Shown: positions 11,721 to 23,736, numbered from the stretch's first letter. The stretch: 64,000 nt of DNA from an uncultured Pelagibacteraceae bacterium (GCA_902525595.1 CABZHO010000001.1:1096-65095), one strand, 5' to 3'. Program-made: numbers and translations. The notes: generated by a model not told the origin, from the letters alone.

Positions 11721-14700
11721 ATGAATAAATTATTTAAATTTATTTCTGTGAGTACATTGCTAACAGTACTTGCACCAGTTGCATGGACTTCATCGAACGC
11801 AGCTGAATTAAACATGCCAGGATTCAATGGCAGCATCAACACGACATTTACATCTGGTTTCTCAATGAGAGTTGCTGACTTGGATTGTCGTTTACTTGAA
11901 GGATATAAATATACAGCTGGTGGACAGTTTGCTACTCTTGCCGGCGAGAGTACTGTACCAGCAGGTGGAAACCTACCTGCGGGAATAACACCTTCTCAGG
12001 CAGTTACGGCGACATTAGGAGCCAGAAGTATTACGGGAGATGAGCTTACGTTCTTATCATCCAGTATTGGTTCAACAGGTGAAGGCTGTGCGCAACCAAC
12101 AAGTGATACTTATGGTAACACCACAGATGATTTATTTTCATACGGAAGTGATATGGCCAATGATGGAAACTTAAATTTCCGTTCTGGTGATATCTTTGAT
12201 GCAACACAAAGTTTGTATTCAGAAATTTCAGGAACCACTGACGGTGGCACAAGTCTCAATTTATCTTTCGTCGCATCCGTTAACCCAGCTTTAGATATTA
12301 ATTCCCCTAAATTTAAAGTGTTGACATCAAGTGCGGAAGATGACTTTGAACAAAATTTCGATGTTTTAGATGCATACATAGTTGACTCATTTGATGTGGG
12401 TAACACATTTGTTGATATCACAGCAGGTCGTTTTGTAACGAGCTGGGGTGAATCTACATTTATTCCAGTTGGATTAAATGGTTTGGTAACGAATGCCCTC
12501 GACTTACCAAAACTACAATCCCCAAGTGCCTCTATTAAAGAAGCATTGATGCCTACTGAGCAGCTATCGATAACAACGGGTTTAGCTGATGGTTCAACTC
12601 TTGAAGCATACTATCAATTTAGTGCTGAACAAATTGGCCTTGGTGTTAGCGGCTCATACTTCGGTAGTGAAGTCTTCGGTGAAGGTGCCAACTCACTCGA
12701 TGCATCCGGTACTTATGATTATGAAATTGAAAAGCCAACAATGTGTCCTTGGACGATGGTAGGCGCTACGTCGGCAAACGCAATGGGCGCTTCAGTTGGT
12801 CTTGGCTTAACATGTAACGCAACAAATGTTTTGGCGCAATCGCGAGATGCAACTAACTGGGTAAATCATGATACTACTCAATTAGTGGTTAGCGGTTTAC
12901 AGTCGTTTACTGGAACTGAGATAGTGGGTGCTGCAGCGGTGGCTATGACAACTCACGCATTCACAACTGCTCAAGTTCTTGATAGTAATGGAGACAATAG
13001 CGGTGGTGCTGGCAATGTGGCTGATAGCATGAATAATATTGCAACATCTGGCGCATTCAACGGTTCGGCAGCTGACAGTACGAAAACGGCTCTTGTGGCA
13101 CAAGCTTATGCTAACGTGGCAAACTCGTCATATTCAAAAGGCGCAGTAGTTGATATTTTCCCTGCTGCAACTGGGATGCTTCAAGCAGCCAGTGACGATG
13201 GTCAGTTTGGTTTCAGATGGAGTAAATATCTGGATAATGTTGGCACAGGTTTAGATTTGGGTGTTTACTATGCTAACTACCATTCAAAAGTCCCTTATAT
13301 TCAAATGAAAATGATGAACGGTGTATTTGCTCAAGATATTTTAGGCTCCTATTTATTAGCATCTGCTGACTATGCGGGAACTGATCTTTCTGCGCTTGGT
13401 CTACTGGTGGACTCGAATGGTGACAGTACGAATGCTGCGGGTGTTTATGATTTAAACGGTACTGAAGATCTTCATAAAGCTCTTTCAAATGCTGCTTTTT
13501 CAGAAGGACTATGCGATGCAGTAATGGGCACAACCATCAGAACAGCTTTTGGTTATGACAATACTAACACGCGTGGATTTATTGATACGTTACTTCAGCA
13601 AGCAAGTTTTGGTCGTGGCCTAATAGCTGGCGGAGGCAGAATGGAACACGCACACGATAGTTCAGCTTGTGCAGCAACTGCTAGCCCTTCTGTTGGAGGA
13701 TCTGGTGCTGGTGTTCTTAGTACGGACGCTACCACAGCTTTGCTTGGAACTGGAGCAAGACTATTTGCAGCCGTTACTCCACTTAATTTTATGTCTTATC
13801 AAGGCATATTTCCTGAAGATAACCAAGTCTTGGGTGTGAGTTTCAATACCAACGTGAATGGAACAACCGTTCAAGGTGAGATAGCTTATCGTCCTGATTT
13901 CCCACTGGCAACAGGGGCAGGTGATCAGATTAACCAAATCGGCGATAAGACTGGCGCGAACGATGCCTTAAACATGGTGTCTGTTGCTGGTTTTAATGCG
14001 GCTGCAGCAGATAACTTAGCAGGACAAATAACAGTTGTTGAAGCACTTTCAGGTGGTGATTACTTTGATATAATTTCATCTTTTGAGCGATCTACACTTG
14101 GCAATGTTCAAGATGCAAACGGTAATGCAATTTCTGATGTACATTCATACACTGGCGCGTGGTATTACTCAAAACCATTTATTGAGTATGATACGTGGAG
14201 TGGTACATTTGGAACAACAACAGCATTTACAACAACGCATCCGATTACAGCAACATTAGGTGCTGACTCGTCAGCGTTGGTCTCTGAAATTGGATTTGTT
14301 TATGTTCCAGACATGAATAACAACAGCTATGGCTTCGTCGCTCGAAACGGCTTTAATGAAGGGGCGGGTTCAGCTACTACAAAATGCCTTGGTGCATTTG
14401 GACATTTGTCTGGATGGTCTAATTTAGGCGCTACAGCAGCAGCTTTGGAACCAAAATACACGGGTCTATCTGGATCAGGTGCGAGCTTGACCAATATTGG
14501 ATCAGGTGTGGTTGATGCATTATTTGGTAATGGTGGTTATTGTGAAGATAATCCAGGTGCCGATGACTTTGCGGCAACATACAGATTACTTGGTACAGCG
14601 ACTTATCAAAACTTCAATAACTCAAGGTGGACACTATCGCCAACAGTTATCGTTTCTCATGACTTCATGGGTTTTGCACCATCATCACTAGGTGGATTTG

Positions 14701-14858
14701 TTGAAGACAGAATGTCAGTTTACATTGGTGCATCTATGGGCAGAGGTGATCTGAGCATTACAGCAAGTTATGTCGACTACTATGACCTTGGTAACGATTA
14801 TCAACAAAGAATGGCTGATAGAGACTACGTCTCATTATCAGTGTCTCAATCATTTTAA
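11721..14858 (+). CDS. DUF1302 family outer-membrane protein (enlarged)
   Basis: Signal peptide; DGNLNF, GRFVTSWGESTFI, EAYYQF, YANYHSKVP, GEIAYRPDFPL, DRDYVSLS motifs; C-terminal Phe beta-signal. Confidence 0.85.
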   Translation: MNKLFKFISVSTLLTVLAPVAWTSSNAAELNMPGFNGSINTTFTSGFSMRVADLDCRLLEGYKYTAGGQFATLAGESTVPAGGNLPAGITPSQAVTATLGARSITGDELTFLSSSIGSTGEGCAQPTSDTYGNTTDDLFSYGSDMANDGNLNFRSGDIFDATQSLYSEISGTTDGGTSLNLSFVASVNPALDINSPKFKVLTSSAEDDFEQNFDVLDAYIVDSFDVGNTFVDITAGRFVTSWGESTFIPVGLNGLVTNALDLPKLQSPSASIKEALMPTEQLSITTGLADGSTLEAYYQFSAEQIGLGVSGSYFGSEVFGEGANSLDASGTYDYEIEKPTMCPWTMVGATSANAMGASVGLGLTCNATNVLAQSRDATNWVNHDTTQLVVSGLQSFTGTEIVGAAAVAMTTHAFTTAQVLDSNGDNSGGAGNVADSMNNIATSGAFNGSAADSTKTALVAQAYANVANSSYSKGAVVDIFPAATGMLQAASDDGQFGFRWSKYLDNVGTGLDLGVYYANYHSKVPYIQMKMMNGVFAQDILGSYLLASADYAGTDLSALGLLVDSNGDSTNAAGVYDLNGTEDLHKALSNAAFSEGLCDAVMGTTIRTAFGYDNTNTRGFIDTLLQQASFGRGLIAGGGRMEHAHDSSACAATASPSVGGSGAGVLSTDATTALLGTGARLFAAVTPLNFMSYQGIFPEDNQVLGVSFNTNVNGTTVQGEIAYRPDFPLATGAGDQINQIGDKTGANDALNMVSVAGFNAAAADNLAGQITVVEALSGGDYFDIISSFERSTLGNVQDANGNAISDVHSYTGAWYYSKPFIEYDTWSGTFGTTTAFTTTHPITATLGADSSALVSEIGFVYVPDMNNNSYGFVARNGFNEGAGSATTKCLGAFGHLSGWSNLGATAAALEPKYTGLSGSGASLTNIGSGVVDALFGNGGYCEDNPGADDFAATYRLLGTATYQNFNNSRWTLSPTVIVSHDFMGFAPSSLGGFVEDRMSVYIGASMGRGDLSITASYVDYYDLGNDYQQRMADRDYVSLSVSQSF

Positions 14859-14875
14859 TTAGGGAAGGGTAAAAA

Positions 14876-16096
14876 ATGATGAAATCTAAAATAAAAAAAT
14901 TAATTACAGCTCTGATAGCTTCTGTGGCATTATCTTCGACTGCAGTATTTGCGGAGGTTAAGTATTCTGTGACATCTGCAAATTTCATTGAATATGCCGA
15001 CATGTTAACACCAGGACAAAAAGCTTTATTCATTGCATATCCTGATACGTTTCGAATCGATGTGTATGAAAATTCTCCAGCGTGTGAAGCGCCAGATGAT
15101 ATCAAAGCAATGTCTCAATCTAATGGAACATTAGTAAATGATAACGAAGGTTTTGAGGCGCCAAATGTTGGGCAAATACCTTTCCCAAATCCAACGCATC
15201 CTCAACATTTCGTGTGGAACTTTAGAATGAATTCAAGCTACGTTTCAAATGTGGCTCGAGTCGGAACGTCAACAAACGTTGCAGCGGATGGATCAATCGT
15301 GATTGGTCAGCAAGTAACAGACATTGTCTTCCCAAGAAATCCGAACACGAGATCTCAATACGCGGATCCAAATATTTTTGCCATGTTTATGCAGAAAAAC
15401 CTTGGACCACCAAGAACAGCTGGTGTAGTTACACTTGTTCATGACTATATTGACAGTTATATTCAACCGCGAAAAGCTTGGGGTTATGCGCCAGCAACCA
15501 GACGTGTTAGAAGAGCTCCAAATATTTCTTATGACACAGTCCTTAATGCGGGTGGTGGTATTATCACAATTGACCAGTACAATGGCTTTAATGGAGCACA
15601 GGACAAATACGATTGGAGTTATGAAGGCATGAAAAAAGCTTTGGTACCAATGTATAATGATGTACTGATGAATACGGCAGTTGAAGATTCGCATACGCGT
15701 AATCACTTAAATCCTGATCACGTTCGCTTTGAAGAAAGAGATGTTCATGTTGTTCACGCTCAATTAAAACCGGGGCAAAGGCATTTATATGAATCTCGTA
15801 CATTCTACTTCATCGATGACGATTATTATCATTTAGCACTGCATGACATGTATGATGGTAATGGTGATTTGATGAGAACATATATTGGCACAATCATTGC
15901 TGGACAATTTGGTGCATCAAAAGCCACTGAGTGTTTCTCTCAAGGAGAATTCACTTTTGACTTAGCGACACGATCTTACTCAGGAAACAATGTATTTGGT
16001 GAGGCATTTTATTCACAGCTTCCTGTTTACAATGGTGCTGAGGAAAAACCAGCAAGCTTCTATACGCCTGACGGTTTAAGACGATACGCTAGATAA
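14876..16096 (+). CDS. DUF1329 family periplasmic protein (LolA-like)
   Basis: Signal peptide; LTPGQKALF, IPFPNP, RKAWGY...RRVRRAP, FNGAQDKYDW, FYTPDGLRR motifs; follows DUF1302. Confidence 0.88.
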   Translation: MMKSKIKKLITALIASVALSSTAVFAEVKYSVTSANFIEYADMLTPGQKALFIAYPDTFRIDVYENSPACEAPDDIKAMSQSNGTLVNDNEGFEAPNVGQIPFPNPTHPQHFVWNFRMNSSYVSNVARVGTSTNVAADGSIVIGQQVTDIVFPRNPNTRSQYADPNIFAMFMQKNLGPPRTAGVVTLVHDYIDSYIQPRKAWGYAPATRRVRRAPNISYDTVLNAGGGIITIDQYNGFNGAQDKYDWSYEGMKKALVPMYNDVLMNTAVEDSHTRNHLNPDHVRFEERDVHVVHAQLKPGQRHLYESRTFYFIDDDYYHLALHDMYDGNGDLMRTYIGTIIAGQFGASKATECFSQGEFTFDLATRSYSGNNVFGEAFYSQLPVYNGAEEKPASFYTPDGLRRYAR

Positions 16097-16118
16097 CAAT
16101 CTTAATTAACGTATAATT

Positions 16119-16150
16119 AAACCCGACTTGATATTTTTAAGTCGGGTTTT
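16119..16150 (+). terminator. Intrinsic terminator-like or mRNA-stabilising hairpin inside the operon
   Basis: AAACCCGACTT (16119-16129) / AAGTCGGGTTT (16139-16149) 11-bp stem ending in a U-run. Confidence 0.7.
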
Positions 16151-16180
16151 AATTTATTCAAAACAGGATTGACTAAGTTG

Positions 16181-17311
16181 ATGAAAAATTTTCTCAAAAT
16201 AATACTTACATTTTTCGTCTTGAGTTCAGTGACGTATTCCACAGATTTTAATTTTGGATCAGGAAAAGCAGCGCTCTCCAAGTATGCATCGAATGCTCTG
16301 ATCACGGCTATGGAGCATGTTTCAGGAAGGATCTATGCTGTAGGAGTGCACGGTATTATTATCTATACAGACGATGATGGGGAAAATTGGACACAATCTG
16401 AAAATGTTCCTTATACAAATACGCTCACAGATATCAGCTGTCCAACGATTGAGCTTTGTTGGGCAACAGGACATGATTCAACGATTTTGCACAGTAGTGA
16501 TAATGGTGTGAATTGGACCATACAATTTCAAGACATCGATTTTGACGCACCTTTATTATCCATTCATATGTATGACGATAAAAATGGTATTGCACTCGGG
16601 GCTTTTGCGCTGTCACTTAGAACAAATGATGGTGGTAACTCGTGGGGATATTTATTCATCAGTGATGACGATTACCAACCTCATCTTAACTATGCCTTTA
16701 GTGATCCCCAGTTGTGGCGAGTATCAGCTGCTAACGAGGGCTTCGCAGTAGGCGAGCTAGGTAAGTTTTATTTGTCTCCAGACAAAGGATTGACATGGAT
16801 GACGATTGATACTGGCTACCCTGGTTCTTTGTGGTCAGGTATTAAAGCTGATGTAGGGATCTATATATTATTGGGTATGTCAGGCAATATCATTATTGCT
16901 AAAGAACTAGATCCTAATGCTGAAGAGCCATCTGCTGACAAGTTTACTGGACTGGGGTGTTTTGAGGGAGGAATGTATGATGGAGATTGTAAAGTATTTA
17001 CATTCGAATACCAAAATATTGGGGTCAAAAATAGTTTAACCAATGCGATTATTCTCGATGATGGAAGAATTGCCATAAGTGGCAACAGTGGAACAGTGAC
17101 AATTGTTGACTTATATAACAAAAAAAATATTGAAACATGTGTACGGTCTGATCGATTAAGTAATACATCAATCGTTAATTTAGGTAACGATGAATTTCTC
17201 ATTGCTGGGCAAAAAGGAGTAAGAAAACACAGCATGTCGCAATGCTACGAAAACTTTGTCTCTGATGATCCAGCGTTGCAAGACTCTTATTACACAGTTG
17301 ATTTAAGTTAG
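16181..17311 (+). CDS. YCF48/BNR (Asp-box) repeat beta-propeller protein
   Basis: Signal peptide; repeated T/SxDxGxxW Asp-boxes (TDDDGENW, SSDNGVNW, TNDGGNSW, SPDKGLTW); start could be 16169-16181. Confidence 0.85.
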   Translation: MKNFLKIILTFFVLSSVTYSTDFNFGSGKAALSKYASNALITAMEHVSGRIYAVGVHGIIIYTDDDGENWTQSENVPYTNTLTDISCPTIELCWATGHDSTILHSSDNGVNWTIQFQDIDFDAPLLSIHMYDDKNGIALGAFALSLRTNDGGNSWGYLFISDDDYQPHLNYAFSDPQLWRVSAANEGFAVGELGKFYLSPDKGLTWMTIDTGYPGSLWSGIKADVGIYILLGMSGNIIIAKELDPNAEEPSADKFTGLGCFEGGMYDGDCKVFTFEYQNIGVKNSLTNAIILDDGRIAISGNSGTVTIVDLYNKKNIETCVRSDRLSNTSIVNLGNDEFLIAGQKGVRKHSMSQCYENFVSDDPALQDSYYTVDLS

Positions 17312-19089: not shown

Positions 19090-19983
19090 ATGACAAACGT
19101 TGCAAAGGTCATTAATGGGAAACTCATAGCGTCCGAACTCAGAGCTGAAACCGCTGTTAAAGTAGAGAACTTTAAAAAGGAATTTAGCAAAGTACCTACA
19201 TTAGCTGTTGTTCTTGTGGGCGAAGATCCCGCAAGTCAAGTTTACGTCAGTACCAAGTCAAAAATGGCAAAAGAAATAGGTATGGATGTTGAAGACCATT
19301 ACTTGGATGTAACTGTATCAGAAGAAAAATTACTTGAGGTCGTGAATATGCTTAACAACGATCAAAAAGTGAATGGAATATTAGTTCAACTGCCTCTGCC
19401 TTCACATATAGATTCCCGACTAATTATTGATGCCATTGATCCCATTAAAGATGTAGATGGTTTTCATGCCATCAATGTCGGACGAAATTCAATAGGTGGC
19501 GACTTACTCGATAAGACATTTACACCATGCACACCATTGGGTTGCTACTTAATGCTGAAGAATCATATTTCTGATATGAAAGGTTTGCATGCCGTTATTA
19601 TTGGTCGGTCAAATATTGTGGGAAAGCCAATGGCTCAGTTATTGTTAGAAGAGTCTTGCACTGTCAGTATTGTCCATTCTAAAACTAAAAATATTGAAGA
19701 GATGACTAGACAAGGAGATATTGTGGTTGCTGCTGTTGGACGACCTTTAATGGTGAAAAAAGAATGGATTAAACCTGGAGCAGTTGTGATTGATGTTGGT
19801 ATTAATAGGGTCGACAACCCCAATACAGGCAAAAACAAACTGGTCGGTGATGTTGATTATGATGGTGTTGCAGAAGTGGCTTCAGCTATTACGCCTGTCC
19901 CCGGGGGTGTCGGACCAATGACTATAGCGTGTTTGTTAAAAAACACCTTAGATGCGGCATTGAGACAAGAAAAATCCAAGTAA
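19090..19983 (+). CDS. folD: Methylenetetrahydrofolate dehydrogenase/cyclohydrolase
   Basis: [35 protein letters not shown] motifs. Confidence 0.97.
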
Positions 19984-20188
19984 ATTGAGACACAACAATA
20001 TAAATAACGTTAATTTATCGTAAATACTCTCATAAATAACTCGTGTAAGCATTTTGATGTCGTTATCATTTGTTAAAGTGTCAAAATAAGAATAATTTTT
20101 TCTATATTTGATATCCTCATCATTCTTGTTAAGATATAGAACTAAAATTTATACAATTAAAAATACGAGGGTTAATTATACTATTTTT

Positions 20189-21286
20189 ATGAGATTCAAT
20201 TTAATAAATACTTTTTCTCTTCTGTTAGTATTATTTTTTTTTCCAAATATTACTCAGGCAGAAACTTATGAATGTCAGGCATCAGACCCAGAAGGTGGGT
20301 ATCTCGATTATTTAAATGATTTCGCAGAAGAAATATCTGATTTAACAGATGGTGAAGTTGAGTTTGAATTTGTTGAAGCGGGAGCACTTGTACAAACAAA
20401 TCAAATTTTAGAGGCTGTTCATACCAATGAAATTGATTGTGGGGTTTCCTATACTCATTATTGGGATAAATTTCATCCAGCTGCTATGCTTTTTGGTTCA
20501 CCCATGGCAGGTGCTGGTTTAGGTATTGATAATATTTCCTACTACTCCTGGTATTTAAATGGTGGTGGAAAAAAACTTTATAAAAGATTGTGGAGAGAAA
20601 TGGAAAAAGACATCGTTGGATTTCATATAGCTCCATTTGGTCCCGAGGCACTCGGATGGTTTACCACCCCAATAGAGTCAATGGATGATTTTAGAAATAA
20701 TGTAAGTGCGTATAGAGCGCCTCCAGGACTTCCAGGTAAAACGTACAAAGACGTTGGGGTTAACGCAATGTCGCTTGGTGCTAAAGATTTATTGCCTGCC
20801 CTTGAGCAGGGCATTATTGATGCAGCGGAATGGTGTTGTCCTGCTCCAGATAGACAATATGGAATAAGTGAAGTATTAAAAAATTATTATCTTCAGGGTT
20901 TACATCAAGTTGTAGTGAATGGAGATCTTTATATCAATAAAGATATATATAAAGAATTTTCAAAACAGCAAAAACAAGCTATTGAGACTGCTGCCAACGC
21001 GTCTCTCATGAAATTTGTTGCTAGGAGAATTATGAATAATGGTAAGGCATTAAAAATTTTAACAGAAGATGAGGGAGTCATCTTGCATGATACACCAGAT
21101 GACTACTTTACTGAGTTTTCAGCCGCGGCATACAAAAATATACAAGAACTAAAAGAAACAGATAGCTTTTTTGCAGAAGTTTTTAATTCTATGGAAGAAT
21201 TTGCTGAAGTAGCTGTTCCGTATTGGAGCAATGCGCAACTTTCCAATGCAAAACTTGGAAAAGCTTATGCAGACTCACTTAAATAA
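20189..21286 (+). CDS. dctP: TRAP substrate-binding protein (DctP, TakP-like), orphan
   Basis: Signal peptide from ATG 20189; DLTDGEVEF, GWF, YRAPPG (conserved Arg), LEQGIIDAAEW motifs; no dctQ/dctM adjacent. Confidence 0.85.
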   Translation: MRFNLINTFSLLLVLFFFPNITQAETYECQASDPEGGYLDYLNDFAEEISDLTDGEVEFEFVEAGALVQTNQILEAVHTNEIDCGVSYTHYWDKFHPAAMLFGSPMAGAGLGIDNISYYSWYLNGGGKKLYKRLWREMEKDIVGFHIAPFGPEALGWFTTPIESMDDFRNNVSAYRAPPGLPGKTYKDVGVNAMSLGAKDLLPALEQGIIDAAEWCCPAPDRQYGISEVLKNYYLQGLHQVVVNGDLYINKDIYKEFSKQQKQAIETAANASLMKFVARRIMNNGKALKILTEDEGVILHDTPDDYFTEFSAAAYKNIQELKETDSFFAEVFNSMEEFAEVAVPYWSNAQLSNAKLGKAYADSLK

Positions 21287-22502
21287 GTTTCTATTTCTAT
21301 TTTTTTTATTAATTCCATCCATTTCTCATTCTGCGGGGACAATCACAGATAATAGTGATCTGTTATTTACTGAATCACTAATTGAAAATGATGAAACTAT
21401 TACCTCTAATGAATATTCATCTGACCCTAGATTCTATCAATTACTTTCTGCAGAAAACTGTGATGTTCTCTACAATGAAATTGATTTTAGTCGTTTCAAC
21501 ACCCAAAATTTAAATGTTCAATATGATAATATTATAAAATCAATAATTCTTAGGCCTAAAGAGTTCAAATATAATATAAATTTTTTAGAACAGTCTTTTA
21601 AATTTCAAGCTAAGGAGATGAATACAGCTTTATTTCAGTTTCAATCGTTCGATATGAATATTTTGAAAGAAATGAATGAGGTAAAAAAAAATATTGAAGA
21701 AAATCAATCAGCAGACAGTGAAAATGCAATTATTTGTGAATATAATTTATTAGAAAATATAGAGACTAATAAGTTTCCAGACCTTTCAATCAACTTCGAA
21801 AATGCTCAGATTATTGATATTGGCAGCATAAGTTCAAAGATAAACGTATATTATGACGGCACAGTTGAATACTTCTTTAAAAATTATACGTATCAATTTG
21901 ATAAATCTAACTTTGACTTATCCAAATTTCCTTTTGATTCTCATAATATTCAAACAGTCATAAGATTAAATATGGATAATTCCGCAAAAGTTTCTCCATC
22001 CAGTTATTATGTGAAAAAATTTAATTTTTTAAATCAAAATAATTTTCAATTTATTAATACTCCTGAATTTTCAATTGATAATGTGAATATAAATTTTGGT
22101 TCGGTGGGTGGATCACAAACTATTAGAATGGATTTCATTGCTTCAAGAGTCAGTTATTCTTTCATTTTTAAATTTTTATTGCCCTTATTTTTTATAACAT
22201 TGGTATCATTTTCATTATACGGTTTTATTAATGATCGAGCTGTGGGAGACTCAATTACTCTTCTATTATCAATGACTATCTTTAGTCTTGTAGTAAATGA
22301 TTCTCTACCCGTAACGCCTTATATAACTTTTTATGATGCATTATATTTCATAAGTTTTATTTCAATTGGCATTTTTGTTTTCATTAAAATTTTTATATAC
22401 AAACTTTTTCAACTTAACCATCTAAGGTTAGGAATTGCACTTTCACATATCAGTATTTATTTGATTGCAATACTATTATGCACAATAATTTATTTTAACT
22501 AA
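21267..22502 (+). CDS. Prokaryotic pentameric ligand-gated ion channel (GLIC/ELIC-like)
   Basis: Signal peptide; INVYYDGTVEY strand; Pro-loop FDLSKFPFD; pre-M1 Arg; M1 with Pro (FLLPLFFI); M2 SITLLLSM; M2-M3 LPVTPYIT..D; four C-terminal TM helices. Start 21267 or 21231. Confidence 0.8.
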   Translation: MQTHLNKFLFLFFLLIPSISHSAGTITDNSDLLFTESLIENDETITSNEYSSDPRFYQLLSAENCDVLYNEIDFSRFNTQNLNVQYDNIIKSIILRPKEFKYNINFLEQSFKFQAKEMNTALFQFQSFDMNILKEMNEVKKNIEENQSADSENAIICEYNLLENIETNKFPDLSINFENAQIIDIGSISSKINVYYDGTVEYFFKNYTYQFDKSNFDLSKFPFDSHNIQTVIRLNMDNSAKVSPSSYYVKKFNFLNQNNFQFINTPEFSIDNVNINFGSVGGSQTIRMDFIASRVSYSFIFKFLLPLFFITLVSFSLYGFINDRAVGDSITLLLSMTIFSLVVNDSLPVTPYITFYDALYFISFISIGIFVFIKIFIYKLFQLNHLRLGIALSHISIYLIAILLCTIIYFN

Positions 22503-22542
22503 TTACTGAATCTTTATTGCCTTGTAGCTTTTGCTTCGTAAC

Positions 22543-23736
22543 TTATTTTTTGTCTCTTAGTCTAAGAGCATTCAGCTTAATAAATCCCTCAGAGTCTTTT
22601 TGGCTATAGATGTTATCTGACTCAAATGTTGCTAGATCAAGGTTATACAGACTCTTATCTGATTGTCGCCCGGTAACGATAACATTTCCTTTATAGAGTT
22701 TAAGATTGACCGTTCCCTCAACATTTTTTTGACTTTGATCAATCATTGATTGAAGCATATCTCTTTCTGGAGAAAACCAATAGCCATTGTAAATCAGCTC
22801 TGCATATTTAGGACTGGCGCTATCTTTCAGATGAGCGGCTTCTTTATCAAGCGTAAGGCTCTCAATAGCTCGGTGAGCATGATATAAAATTGTACCTCCT
22901 GGAGTTTCATAAACTCCTCTGGATTTCATTCCAATATATCTATTTTCAACTAAATCAATTCTGCCTACACCATGTTTTCCACCTAATTCATTGAGTTTTT
23001 TTAAAATTTTAAATGGGCTCATAGTTATGTTATTCACTGAGCATGCGTCCCCAGATTTGAACTCAATCGATAATTCTTCTGGCTTATCAGGGGCATCATA
23101 TGGCGAAACTGATCTTGAATACACATATTCAGGTGCCTCTTGATTCGGGTCTTCTAAAACTTTTCCTTCAGCCGAGGAATGTAATATATTTTCATCAATA
23201 CTAAATGGCTGCTCTCCTCTCTTATCTTTAGCTATTTCAATGCCATGCTTATCAGCATATTCAACAAGTGAGGTCCTTGAGGTAAGATCCCATTCTCTCC
23301 ACGGACTGATGATTTTAATATCAGGTTTATGGTAGTAGTAACCTAATTCAAATCTAATTTGATCATTCCCTTTACCTGTTGCACCGTGCGACACTGCATC
23401 TGCATTCACTTTATTAGCAATTTCAATTTGCTTTTTGGCAATTAATGGTCTCGCTATAGATGTACCTAAAAGATAGTAGCCCTCGTATAATGGATTTGCT
23501 CTAAACATAGGAAAGACATAATCACTAACAAACTCCTCTTTTAAATCTTCAATGAAAATTTCCTTTGTATCTTGTTGTTCAGCCTTAAGTTGAACAGAAT
23601 TAAAATCTTCATCTTGTCCAAGATCGGCAGTAAATGTGACAACTTCACAGTTATAGGTCTCTTTTAACCATTTTAAAATGACAGAAGTATCCAGCCCTCC
23701 TGAATAAGCAAGCACAACTTTTTTTATATTATCCAT
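22543..23736 (-). CDS. argG: Argininosuccinate synthase
   Basis: [28 protein letters not shown] motifs. Confidence 0.98.

Follow-up and report, generated by a model that had tools for sequence, protein, structure and literature searches.

A gene for a TRAP-type binding protein, dctP, and a gene for a subunit of the pentameric ligand-gated ion channel (pLGIC) family travel together in SAR11-type bacteria as a pair that, judged from sequence comparisons, is real, conserved and probably functional. We propose that DctP is the soluble, ligand-sensing part of the pentameric channel encoded next to it, a reading to which we give an even chance. It is favoured by the gene linkage, the finding of no DctM, purifying selection, the remodelling of DctP, the conservation of the predicted channel surface and a precedent in the accessible text of Tasneem et al. 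(2005; PMC549065). If the proposal is true, a transporter subunit has been re-used as a receptor subunit, and streamlined ocean bacteria may convert phytoplankton exudate to an ion signal.

The cassette and its two products

The window, the whole 64,000-nucleotide stretch of DNA that was analysed, carries dctP at 20189-21286 (+), which encodes 365 amino acids from its ATG with an N-terminal signal-like stretch and a Pfam DctP domain (PF03480; 94.6 bits, cut-off 23.4). The pLGIC subunit gene follows at 21267-22502 (+; 411 aa, G+C 26%). The dctP stop region lies over the channel start in a 20-nt overlap (21267-21286, +), by which translation of the channel is likely to be coupled to that of dctP. 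The channel may instead start at another in-frame ATG, at 21231, which is not favoured because the dctP reading frame already dictates that codon. The flanking genes folD (19090-19983, +) and argG (22543-23736, -, convergent) lie outside the system, with 205 nt from folD to dctP and 40 nt from the channel gene to the argG stop. The ORF calls agree with the sequence-only reading, which had described a two-gene cassette with a 20-nt overlap between folD and the convergent argG. In all four cassette-free relatives in which folD could be located (five were searched), folD and argG adjoin within 0-1 nt. Therefore, the gene pair is an insert, spanning 19984-22542 (no strand) with both cassette genes inside. 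A promoter and terminator scan returned the same counts as shuffled sequence. A pseudogene or chance ORF is ruled out, as the ORFs are intact and dN/dS is well below 1. Elsewhere in the window, genes for a DUF1302 protein of unusual length (1045 aa), a DUF1329 protein and a YCF48/BNR-repeat protein stand in a row at 11721-17311 (+).

By its predicted fold, the product of 21267-22502 is a prokaryotic pLGIC subunit; pentamer assembly and gated conduction are predicted. In profile searches for the pLGIC hallmarks claimed from the sequence, E-values were significant but scores stayed under the curated cut-offs. Neur_chan_memb reached 22 bits, below its cut-off of 28.1, the Pfam search gave no match to Neur_chan_LBD (PF02931), and TIGR00860 matched at E 6e-11, under the family cut-off. 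These scores fall below the cut-offs because the channel sequence is divergent; phmmer relates it to 5-HT3A and GLIC at E about 1e-7. The fold tests, which work on a predicted model, are decisive for pLGIC membership and bear the claim out. In the AlphaFold2 model (pLDDT 88.6), a signal helix is followed by a beta-sandwich, into which two helices are inserted at residues 116-146, and then by four membrane helices, M1-M4, at residues 296-319, 324-346, 355-376 and 384-410. Foldseek matches the model, with E-values near 1e-17, to GLIC, which the sequence-only reading had named with ELIC for comparison, and to sTeLIC and GABA-A, and VIA-align gives Z 23.7 with an rmsd of 3.1 over 310 residues. Only pLGICs appear among the matches listed by the two programs, and the ESM Atlas agrees. 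The channel shares with GLIC, sTeLIC and GABA-A subunits the whole fold, the Pro-loop (FPFD, 221-224, with P222 and D224), the pre-M1 Arg (R294), the M1 Pro (P306), the 9' Leu of M2 (L334) and the M2-M3 Pro (P348). However, it is only 13-19% identical to them, adds the two-helix insert and a C65/C157 pair, and lacks both an acidic -1' residue and the Cys-loop cysteines. Its loop C is short.

No TRAP membrane partner was found for the binding protein. The absence of dctQ and dctM that the sequence-only reading reported for the window extends to the whole assembly of its genome (G000; 1.0 Mb, 72% complete), in which 142 DctQ/DctM queries gave 0 matches. DctM was found in 0/47 genomes of the genus, 10 of which are at least 90% complete, and in 0/5 family genomes tested, one of which is also among the 47. 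DctP occurs in two of the 47 (G000 and G009), adjoining the channel in both. This genus, g1, is apparently a TRAP-less genus of the SAR11 order, with no DctM and with DctP in the cassette only, yet sulfoacetaldehyde acetyltransferase (xsc) scores over the cut-off in 36/47 of its genomes. The carrier G071 has DctM, every copy of which sits with its own DctP, unrelated to that of the cassette. Among the matches listed, dctM lies nearby in 76/80 GTDB loci of cassette-DctP relatives, and channel-free members of the DctP clade may lie beyond these matches. The four exceptions are a channel locus (L020), two loci that lie at the end of a contig and one at an insertion sequence.

Recurrence and history of the pair

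The adjacency is not confined to this genome, and a neighbourhood survey for dctP-pLGIC pairs without dctQM found a recurring one. The dctP gene lies directly upstream of the channel gene in 6/6 metagenome loci of the channel clade, found by a scan with the channel alignment, and in 4/4 genomes: G000, G009, G175 (from another genus) and G071 (locus L020). The resulting total, 10/10 channel-clade loci found, leaves out database proteins without context (for example, P0026 and clusters of 157 and 96 DctP members). Identity to the window's channel is 97, 87, 82, 50 and 31%, and identity to the window's DctP runs from 98 to 78% across loci. The cassette is rare, being present in 3/60 family genomes. 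Where the completeness of a carrier genome is known, it is 72-79%, a point against the sensing-subunit proposal.

Three genomic settings were seen. In addition to the folD-argG site, the cassette has bestrophin-like, pentapeptide-repeat, secretin-TPR and TAXI genes around it in L120, and in L020 and L121 it has a TAXI gene on its 3' side, with a TPR/secretin-like gene in L020 too. A 99-nt spacer separates dctP from the channel gene in L020 and L121. This spacer, together with a distinct stop and start codon at every locus, rules out a frameshifted fusion gene. A gene for a glutamine amidotransferase-like protein of 460 aa is inserted between folD and dctP in two loci (L117:2080-3462, -; L136:4840-6222, -), and the end of an ORF upstream in L120 resembles a homologue of it.

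Both gene sets are monophyletic in the DctP and channel trees, the latter a FastTree tree with long-branch warnings. Therefore, the loci represent one old pairing with three deep lineages, and repeated independent pairing is ruled out by the single clade in each tree. Rough Nei-Gojobori estimates put dN/dS at 0.02-0.11 in DctP and at 0.09-0.34 in closely related channel pairs, and between the lineages synonymous changes approach saturation (dS about 1.6-3.6). In the comparison of G000 with G175 by the same rough method, dS is 0.89 and 0.60 for the cassette genes and 1.89 for folD, which indicates that both genes were exchanged together. The sequence comparisons thus point to dctP and the channel gene as a conserved mobile two-gene unit under purifying selection.

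Does this unit carry one function or two? The genes may be co-travelling and functionally separate, the channel having inserted behind dctP, dctQM having been lost and the pair persisting as flexible-genome cargo, in which case DctP would serve another receptor or transporter or buffer its ligand. We regard this explanation as rather unlikely. It gains from the single origin of the pair and from the sister channels, which stand alone at many unrelated sites; the cassette DctP was absent within about 1.5 kb in 22/22 sister-family loci. One sister channel gene, in G421, immediately follows a complete but unrelated dctPQM operon, whose end it overlaps (L168:4791-9189) and whose DctP is 25% identical to that of the window. 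The G421 operon includes IclR, aldehyde dehydrogenase-like and alcohol dehydrogenase-like genes. Such an arrangement suggests a possible origin route for the pair and also that adjacency can be accidental, by insertion. The single origin, the stand-alone sister channels and the G421 insertion likewise count against DctP as a sensing subunit. A CitMHS-family membrane protein, which we take to be NhaD-like and of the same superfamily as DctM, is present in 5/5 genomes tested and adds to the case for separate functions, but it occurs also in genomes without the cassette DctP. Orphan binding proteins can, moreover, signal via other receptors, according to the accessible portions of PMC5812351 and PMC8050422. 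However, the adjacency has outlasted synonymous saturation and flank changes on both sides, and no further neighbour is common to all loci.

A class-wide draw of 401 genomes gave three distant channels only, with no DctP match among their neighbours. The family of G071 (116 genomes; 101 relatives) gave no additional member of either clade, and ten DctPs at 53-57% identity in that family all have dctQM. Viral contigs held no relatives of the cassette genes, and a weak search of proteins of 640-2000 aa scored no DctP-channel fusion.

Ancestry and remodelling of the binding protein

The nearest DctP sequences among the matches listed (about 440-460 bits, 52-60% identity) lie in isethionate/DHPS gene clusters, next to GMC oxidoreductase, sulfoacetaldehyde acetyltransferase (over the cut-off), IclR, HisD-like, SDR and Zn-dehydrogenase genes. 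Of the 80 GTDB loci from the matches listed, 68 carry at least one gene that is 50% or more identical to the reference for GMC, Xsc or HpsN-like (HisD-like) proteins. These neighbourhoods match iseJKLMR and hpsKLMNOP as given in the accessible part of PMC4334477, and the ancestry of the cassette DctP is therefore in sulfonate uptake. In the available text of PMC11485210, the ligands of SAR11_0864 are isethionate (Kd 0.48 uM in the presence of Ca2+) and DHPS, whereas taurine is not bound. The protein defines a sulfonate cluster, for which the available text of PMC13335735 sets a membership threshold of about 40% identity. This threshold is cleared by the 52-60% identity to ise/hps-neighbourhood members. 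As far as the accessible text of these three papers allows comparison, the cassette DctP resembles IseK/SAR11_0864 in that identity to the cluster proteins and in its cation-site residues, and a C-terminal motif, judged by eye, is common to SAR11_0864 and the cassette-DctP relatives. Unlike IseK/SAR11_0864, the cassette has neither dctQM nor catabolic genes nearby, and 24 invariant positions of its DctP are switched. Some of these switches are near the TakP Tyr99/Tyr100 region, and therefore the ligand may differ from that of the sulfonate relatives. No sulfonate catabolic genes accompany the cassette in its loci; xsc was not found in G000, and G009 has only a below-cut-off paralogue.

The sequence-only reading had favoured a TakP-type ligand such as a 2-oxo acid. 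This assignment was rejected as a default, as the closest relatives among the matches listed sit in sulfonate clusters and TakP, at 83.5 bits, is near only among solved structures. Four residues of the six-residue TakP site are identical in the cassette DctP (the equivalents of Tyr100, Arg177, Glu214 and Trp215 of Rhodobacter sphaeroides TakP; 2hzk/2hzl; PMC1839085, accessible part). The remaining Gln and Glu are swapped, Gln156/Glu240 of TakP being Glu153/Gln240 in the cassette DctP and in all 72 sulfonate-cluster relatives, and this pattern is undiagnostic because it is common to the sulfonate relatives. Our leading candidate, at slightly below an even chance, is an organosulfonate such as isethionate or DHPS. 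Another small acid is a doubtful alternative, and a changed ligand, or none at all, is unlikely.

The linked DctPs (12 sequences, 8 with known context) form their own clade on a long stem, with an SH-aLRT of 100 in a quick tree. At 185 positions that are at least 95% invariant in the 72 relatives, the linked clade keeps 140, has switched and fixed 24 and is variable at 21. The residues kept include Y91, E153, R176 (the conserved Arg of the DctP family), E214, W215 and Q240. These six are the equivalents of the TakP cation-pyruvate site described in the available text of PMC1839085. The residues changed include D78H, G80N/S and L81E in one patch, G198A and G199K in a second, and F86V, A87S and W88Y in a third, which may alter specificity. 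Residues D58, S60 and E172 of H. influenzae SiaP presumably map to cassette DctP residues 79-81 and 200, and we take patches 78-81 and 198-199 to correspond to the regions by which SiaP docks on its membrane domain. Position 80 is Gly in 72/72 relatives and position 199 in 71/72, and the cassette clade has N/S and K there; five solved DctPs that were compared have small residues at both positions. Mutations at the three SiaP residues block docking on the membrane domain, according to the accessible part of PMC9352664. The linked clade thus appears to be remodelled at family-conserved surface residues with its cation/anion-binding core kept. On the other hand, the linked DctPs retain D200 and much the greater part of the C-lobe motif, which, together with the 99-nt spacer of L020 and L121, counts against the sensing-subunit proposal.

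The channel surface and possible modes of cooperation

In three deep linked pairs, the conservation of channel residues 52-75 and 107-135 is 1.89, 1.50 and 1.63 times that of the remaining outer domain (Fisher p 0.002-0.009), a comparison of non-independent pairs over a region picked post hoc from the alignment. The same ratio is 0.74-1.34 in 14 control channel pairs, which involve six proteins without known context, with one pair at p 0.03. From the family topology, the 52-75 helix and the 107-135 strand/helix insert are predicted to lie on the membrane-distal, apical outer surface. Loop C spans 35 residues in all 9 clade rows, compared with 38-45 in 22/23 other relatives, and a conserved aromatic is absent from it across the three lineages. 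The pore is the least conserved part of the channel. M2 of the window's channel is 17% identical to that of L020, and within the clade position 9' is L or F and position -1' is R, I, E, D or Q/P, varying even among close relatives.

We propose that DctP would capture a small anion and a cation in the periplasm and that one DctP conformer would dock on the membrane-distal surface formed by the 52-75 helix and the 107-135 insert. Docking would take over from the reduced orthosteric site and shift the open/closed balance in either direction, changing ion flux. Beyond the gene linkage, every step of this mechanism is one that we infer. SAR11 bacteria are generally non-motile, and the chemotaxis output proposed in 2005 is therefore unlikely; altered membrane potential or ion balance is a plausible output. 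The fullest form of this mechanism, in which a TRAP binding protein was converted into a docking activator and the pair is a two-component ionotropic receptor of SAR11-type bacteria for algal organosulfonates, gated from its outer surface instead of through a small molecule bound at the classical site, is unlikely. If it is true, it provides a physiological ligand for a bacterial pLGIC and a way of gating that the family has not been shown to use; to our knowledge, few bacterial pLGICs have an established physiological ligand. A complex prediction with two channel outer domains (47-296) and DctP (24-365) scored 0.00 with controls that did not fold, and so speaks neither way. The variable pore is odd for one fixed signalling output and counts against DctP as a sensing subunit, and the TAXI binding protein near the cassette in L020, L120 and L121 is a rival partner for the channel.

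Could DctP help the channel without docking on it? In the scheme of Tasneem et al., the binding protein only raises the ligand concentration near the channel, and free ligand binds the orthosteric site. This concentrator role, which is put forward in the accessible text of PMC549065, needs no docking surface, and E108, Q109 and F111 on strand 2, invariant within the channel clade, could face the orthosteric site. However, loop C is short and lacks the conserved aromatic across the three lineages, and the fixed DctP surface changes are left unexplained; we consider this role improbable. Still less probable is an uptake device that replaces DctQM, in which the anion would pass from DctP into the vestibule and be conducted by the pentamer. 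The descent of the cassette DctP from uptake systems, the prevalence of xsc in a genus with DctM in 0/47 genomes, and the small-residue, variable inner pore mouth agree with such a device. By contrast, the 9' hydrophobic gate is retained, and neither a catabolic gene in the cassette nor an above-cut-off xsc in G000 or G009 was found. Two general points also count against uptake: a solute at nanomolar levels cannot be accumulated through a passive pore, and the membrane potential would oppose the entry of an anion.

The general idea of cooperation is not new. The accessible text of PMC549065 describes pLGIC genes beside stand-alone PBP-II genes, as well as PBP-I/Cache fusions, and predicts cooperation from context. 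The present pair is of the same kind in that a stand-alone class II binding-protein gene conservedly adjoins a pLGIC gene, at 10/10 loci. The difference is that the partner here is a TRAP-type DctP (PF03480) of sulfonate-uptake ancestry, remodelled clade-wide; that text of PMC549065 names no TRAP protein. In the available part of Jaiteh et al. (2016; PMC4795631), extra-domain associations of pLGICs are known at the genome level only. The titles, abstracts and passages searched, a scope outside which subscription papers and bioRxiv supplements lie, contained neither a DctP-pLGIC pairing nor an experimental test of the 2005 cooperation prediction, and the words 'ligand-gated' and 'TRAP' are absent from the SAR11 unknome paper (PMC13712998). 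The claim that no TRAP-binding-protein/pLGIC pairing has been described thus stands for the literature searched, but its more general form, a stand-alone binding protein cooperating with a pLGIC, was already predicted, and DctP as the partner is what appears to be new. In the accessible text of PMC5812351 and PMC8050422, a liganded transport-type binding protein feeds a membrane receptor in the BctC and BctDE two-component system, as we propose here, but the receptors so stimulated belong to the kinases, chemoreceptors and cyclases. In the accessible text of PMC8050422, a review, the word 'channel' does not appear. The pair is tractable, as there are only two genes, the soluble partner has a relative whose ligand has been measured, and candidate surface residues for mutation are named in both proteins. 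DctP has the class II binding-protein fold.

Near-identical dctP contigs are present in 4/4 seawater metatranscriptomes examined (4 studies; 22 runs listed). One seawater RNA contig covers 20978-21324 and crosses the dctP/channel junction; such contigs carry no strand or single-transcript information and may include DNA carry-over. RNA cover of the channel gene is sparse, in short contig pieces only, and cannot rank expression.

Several further observations concern the neighbourhoods and other channels of these bacteria. TAXI and TPR-secretin genes co-travel close to the cassette in two lineages (L120:6556-9344, -; L020:8423-10486, +) at 62-64% identity, and no fused TRAP membrane gene was seen at the TAXI loci. 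In L120, a bestrophin-like gene (1160-1900, +; below the Pfam cut-off) lies two ORFs 5' of dctP; bestrophin is another pentameric channel type. A second, unrelated pLGIC gene (342 aa; L121:231-1259, +) lies directly upstream of dctP, giving the order channel-dctP-channel-TAXI, and its product is a possible heteromer partner or second client. SAR11-order genomes (L014, L015, L016, L139-L142, L153, L156 and L164) also encode diverse longer pLGICs of 460-690 aa, one with a weak PDZ match, which are sometimes in tandem and lie at varied sites, often beside the same small accessory genes.
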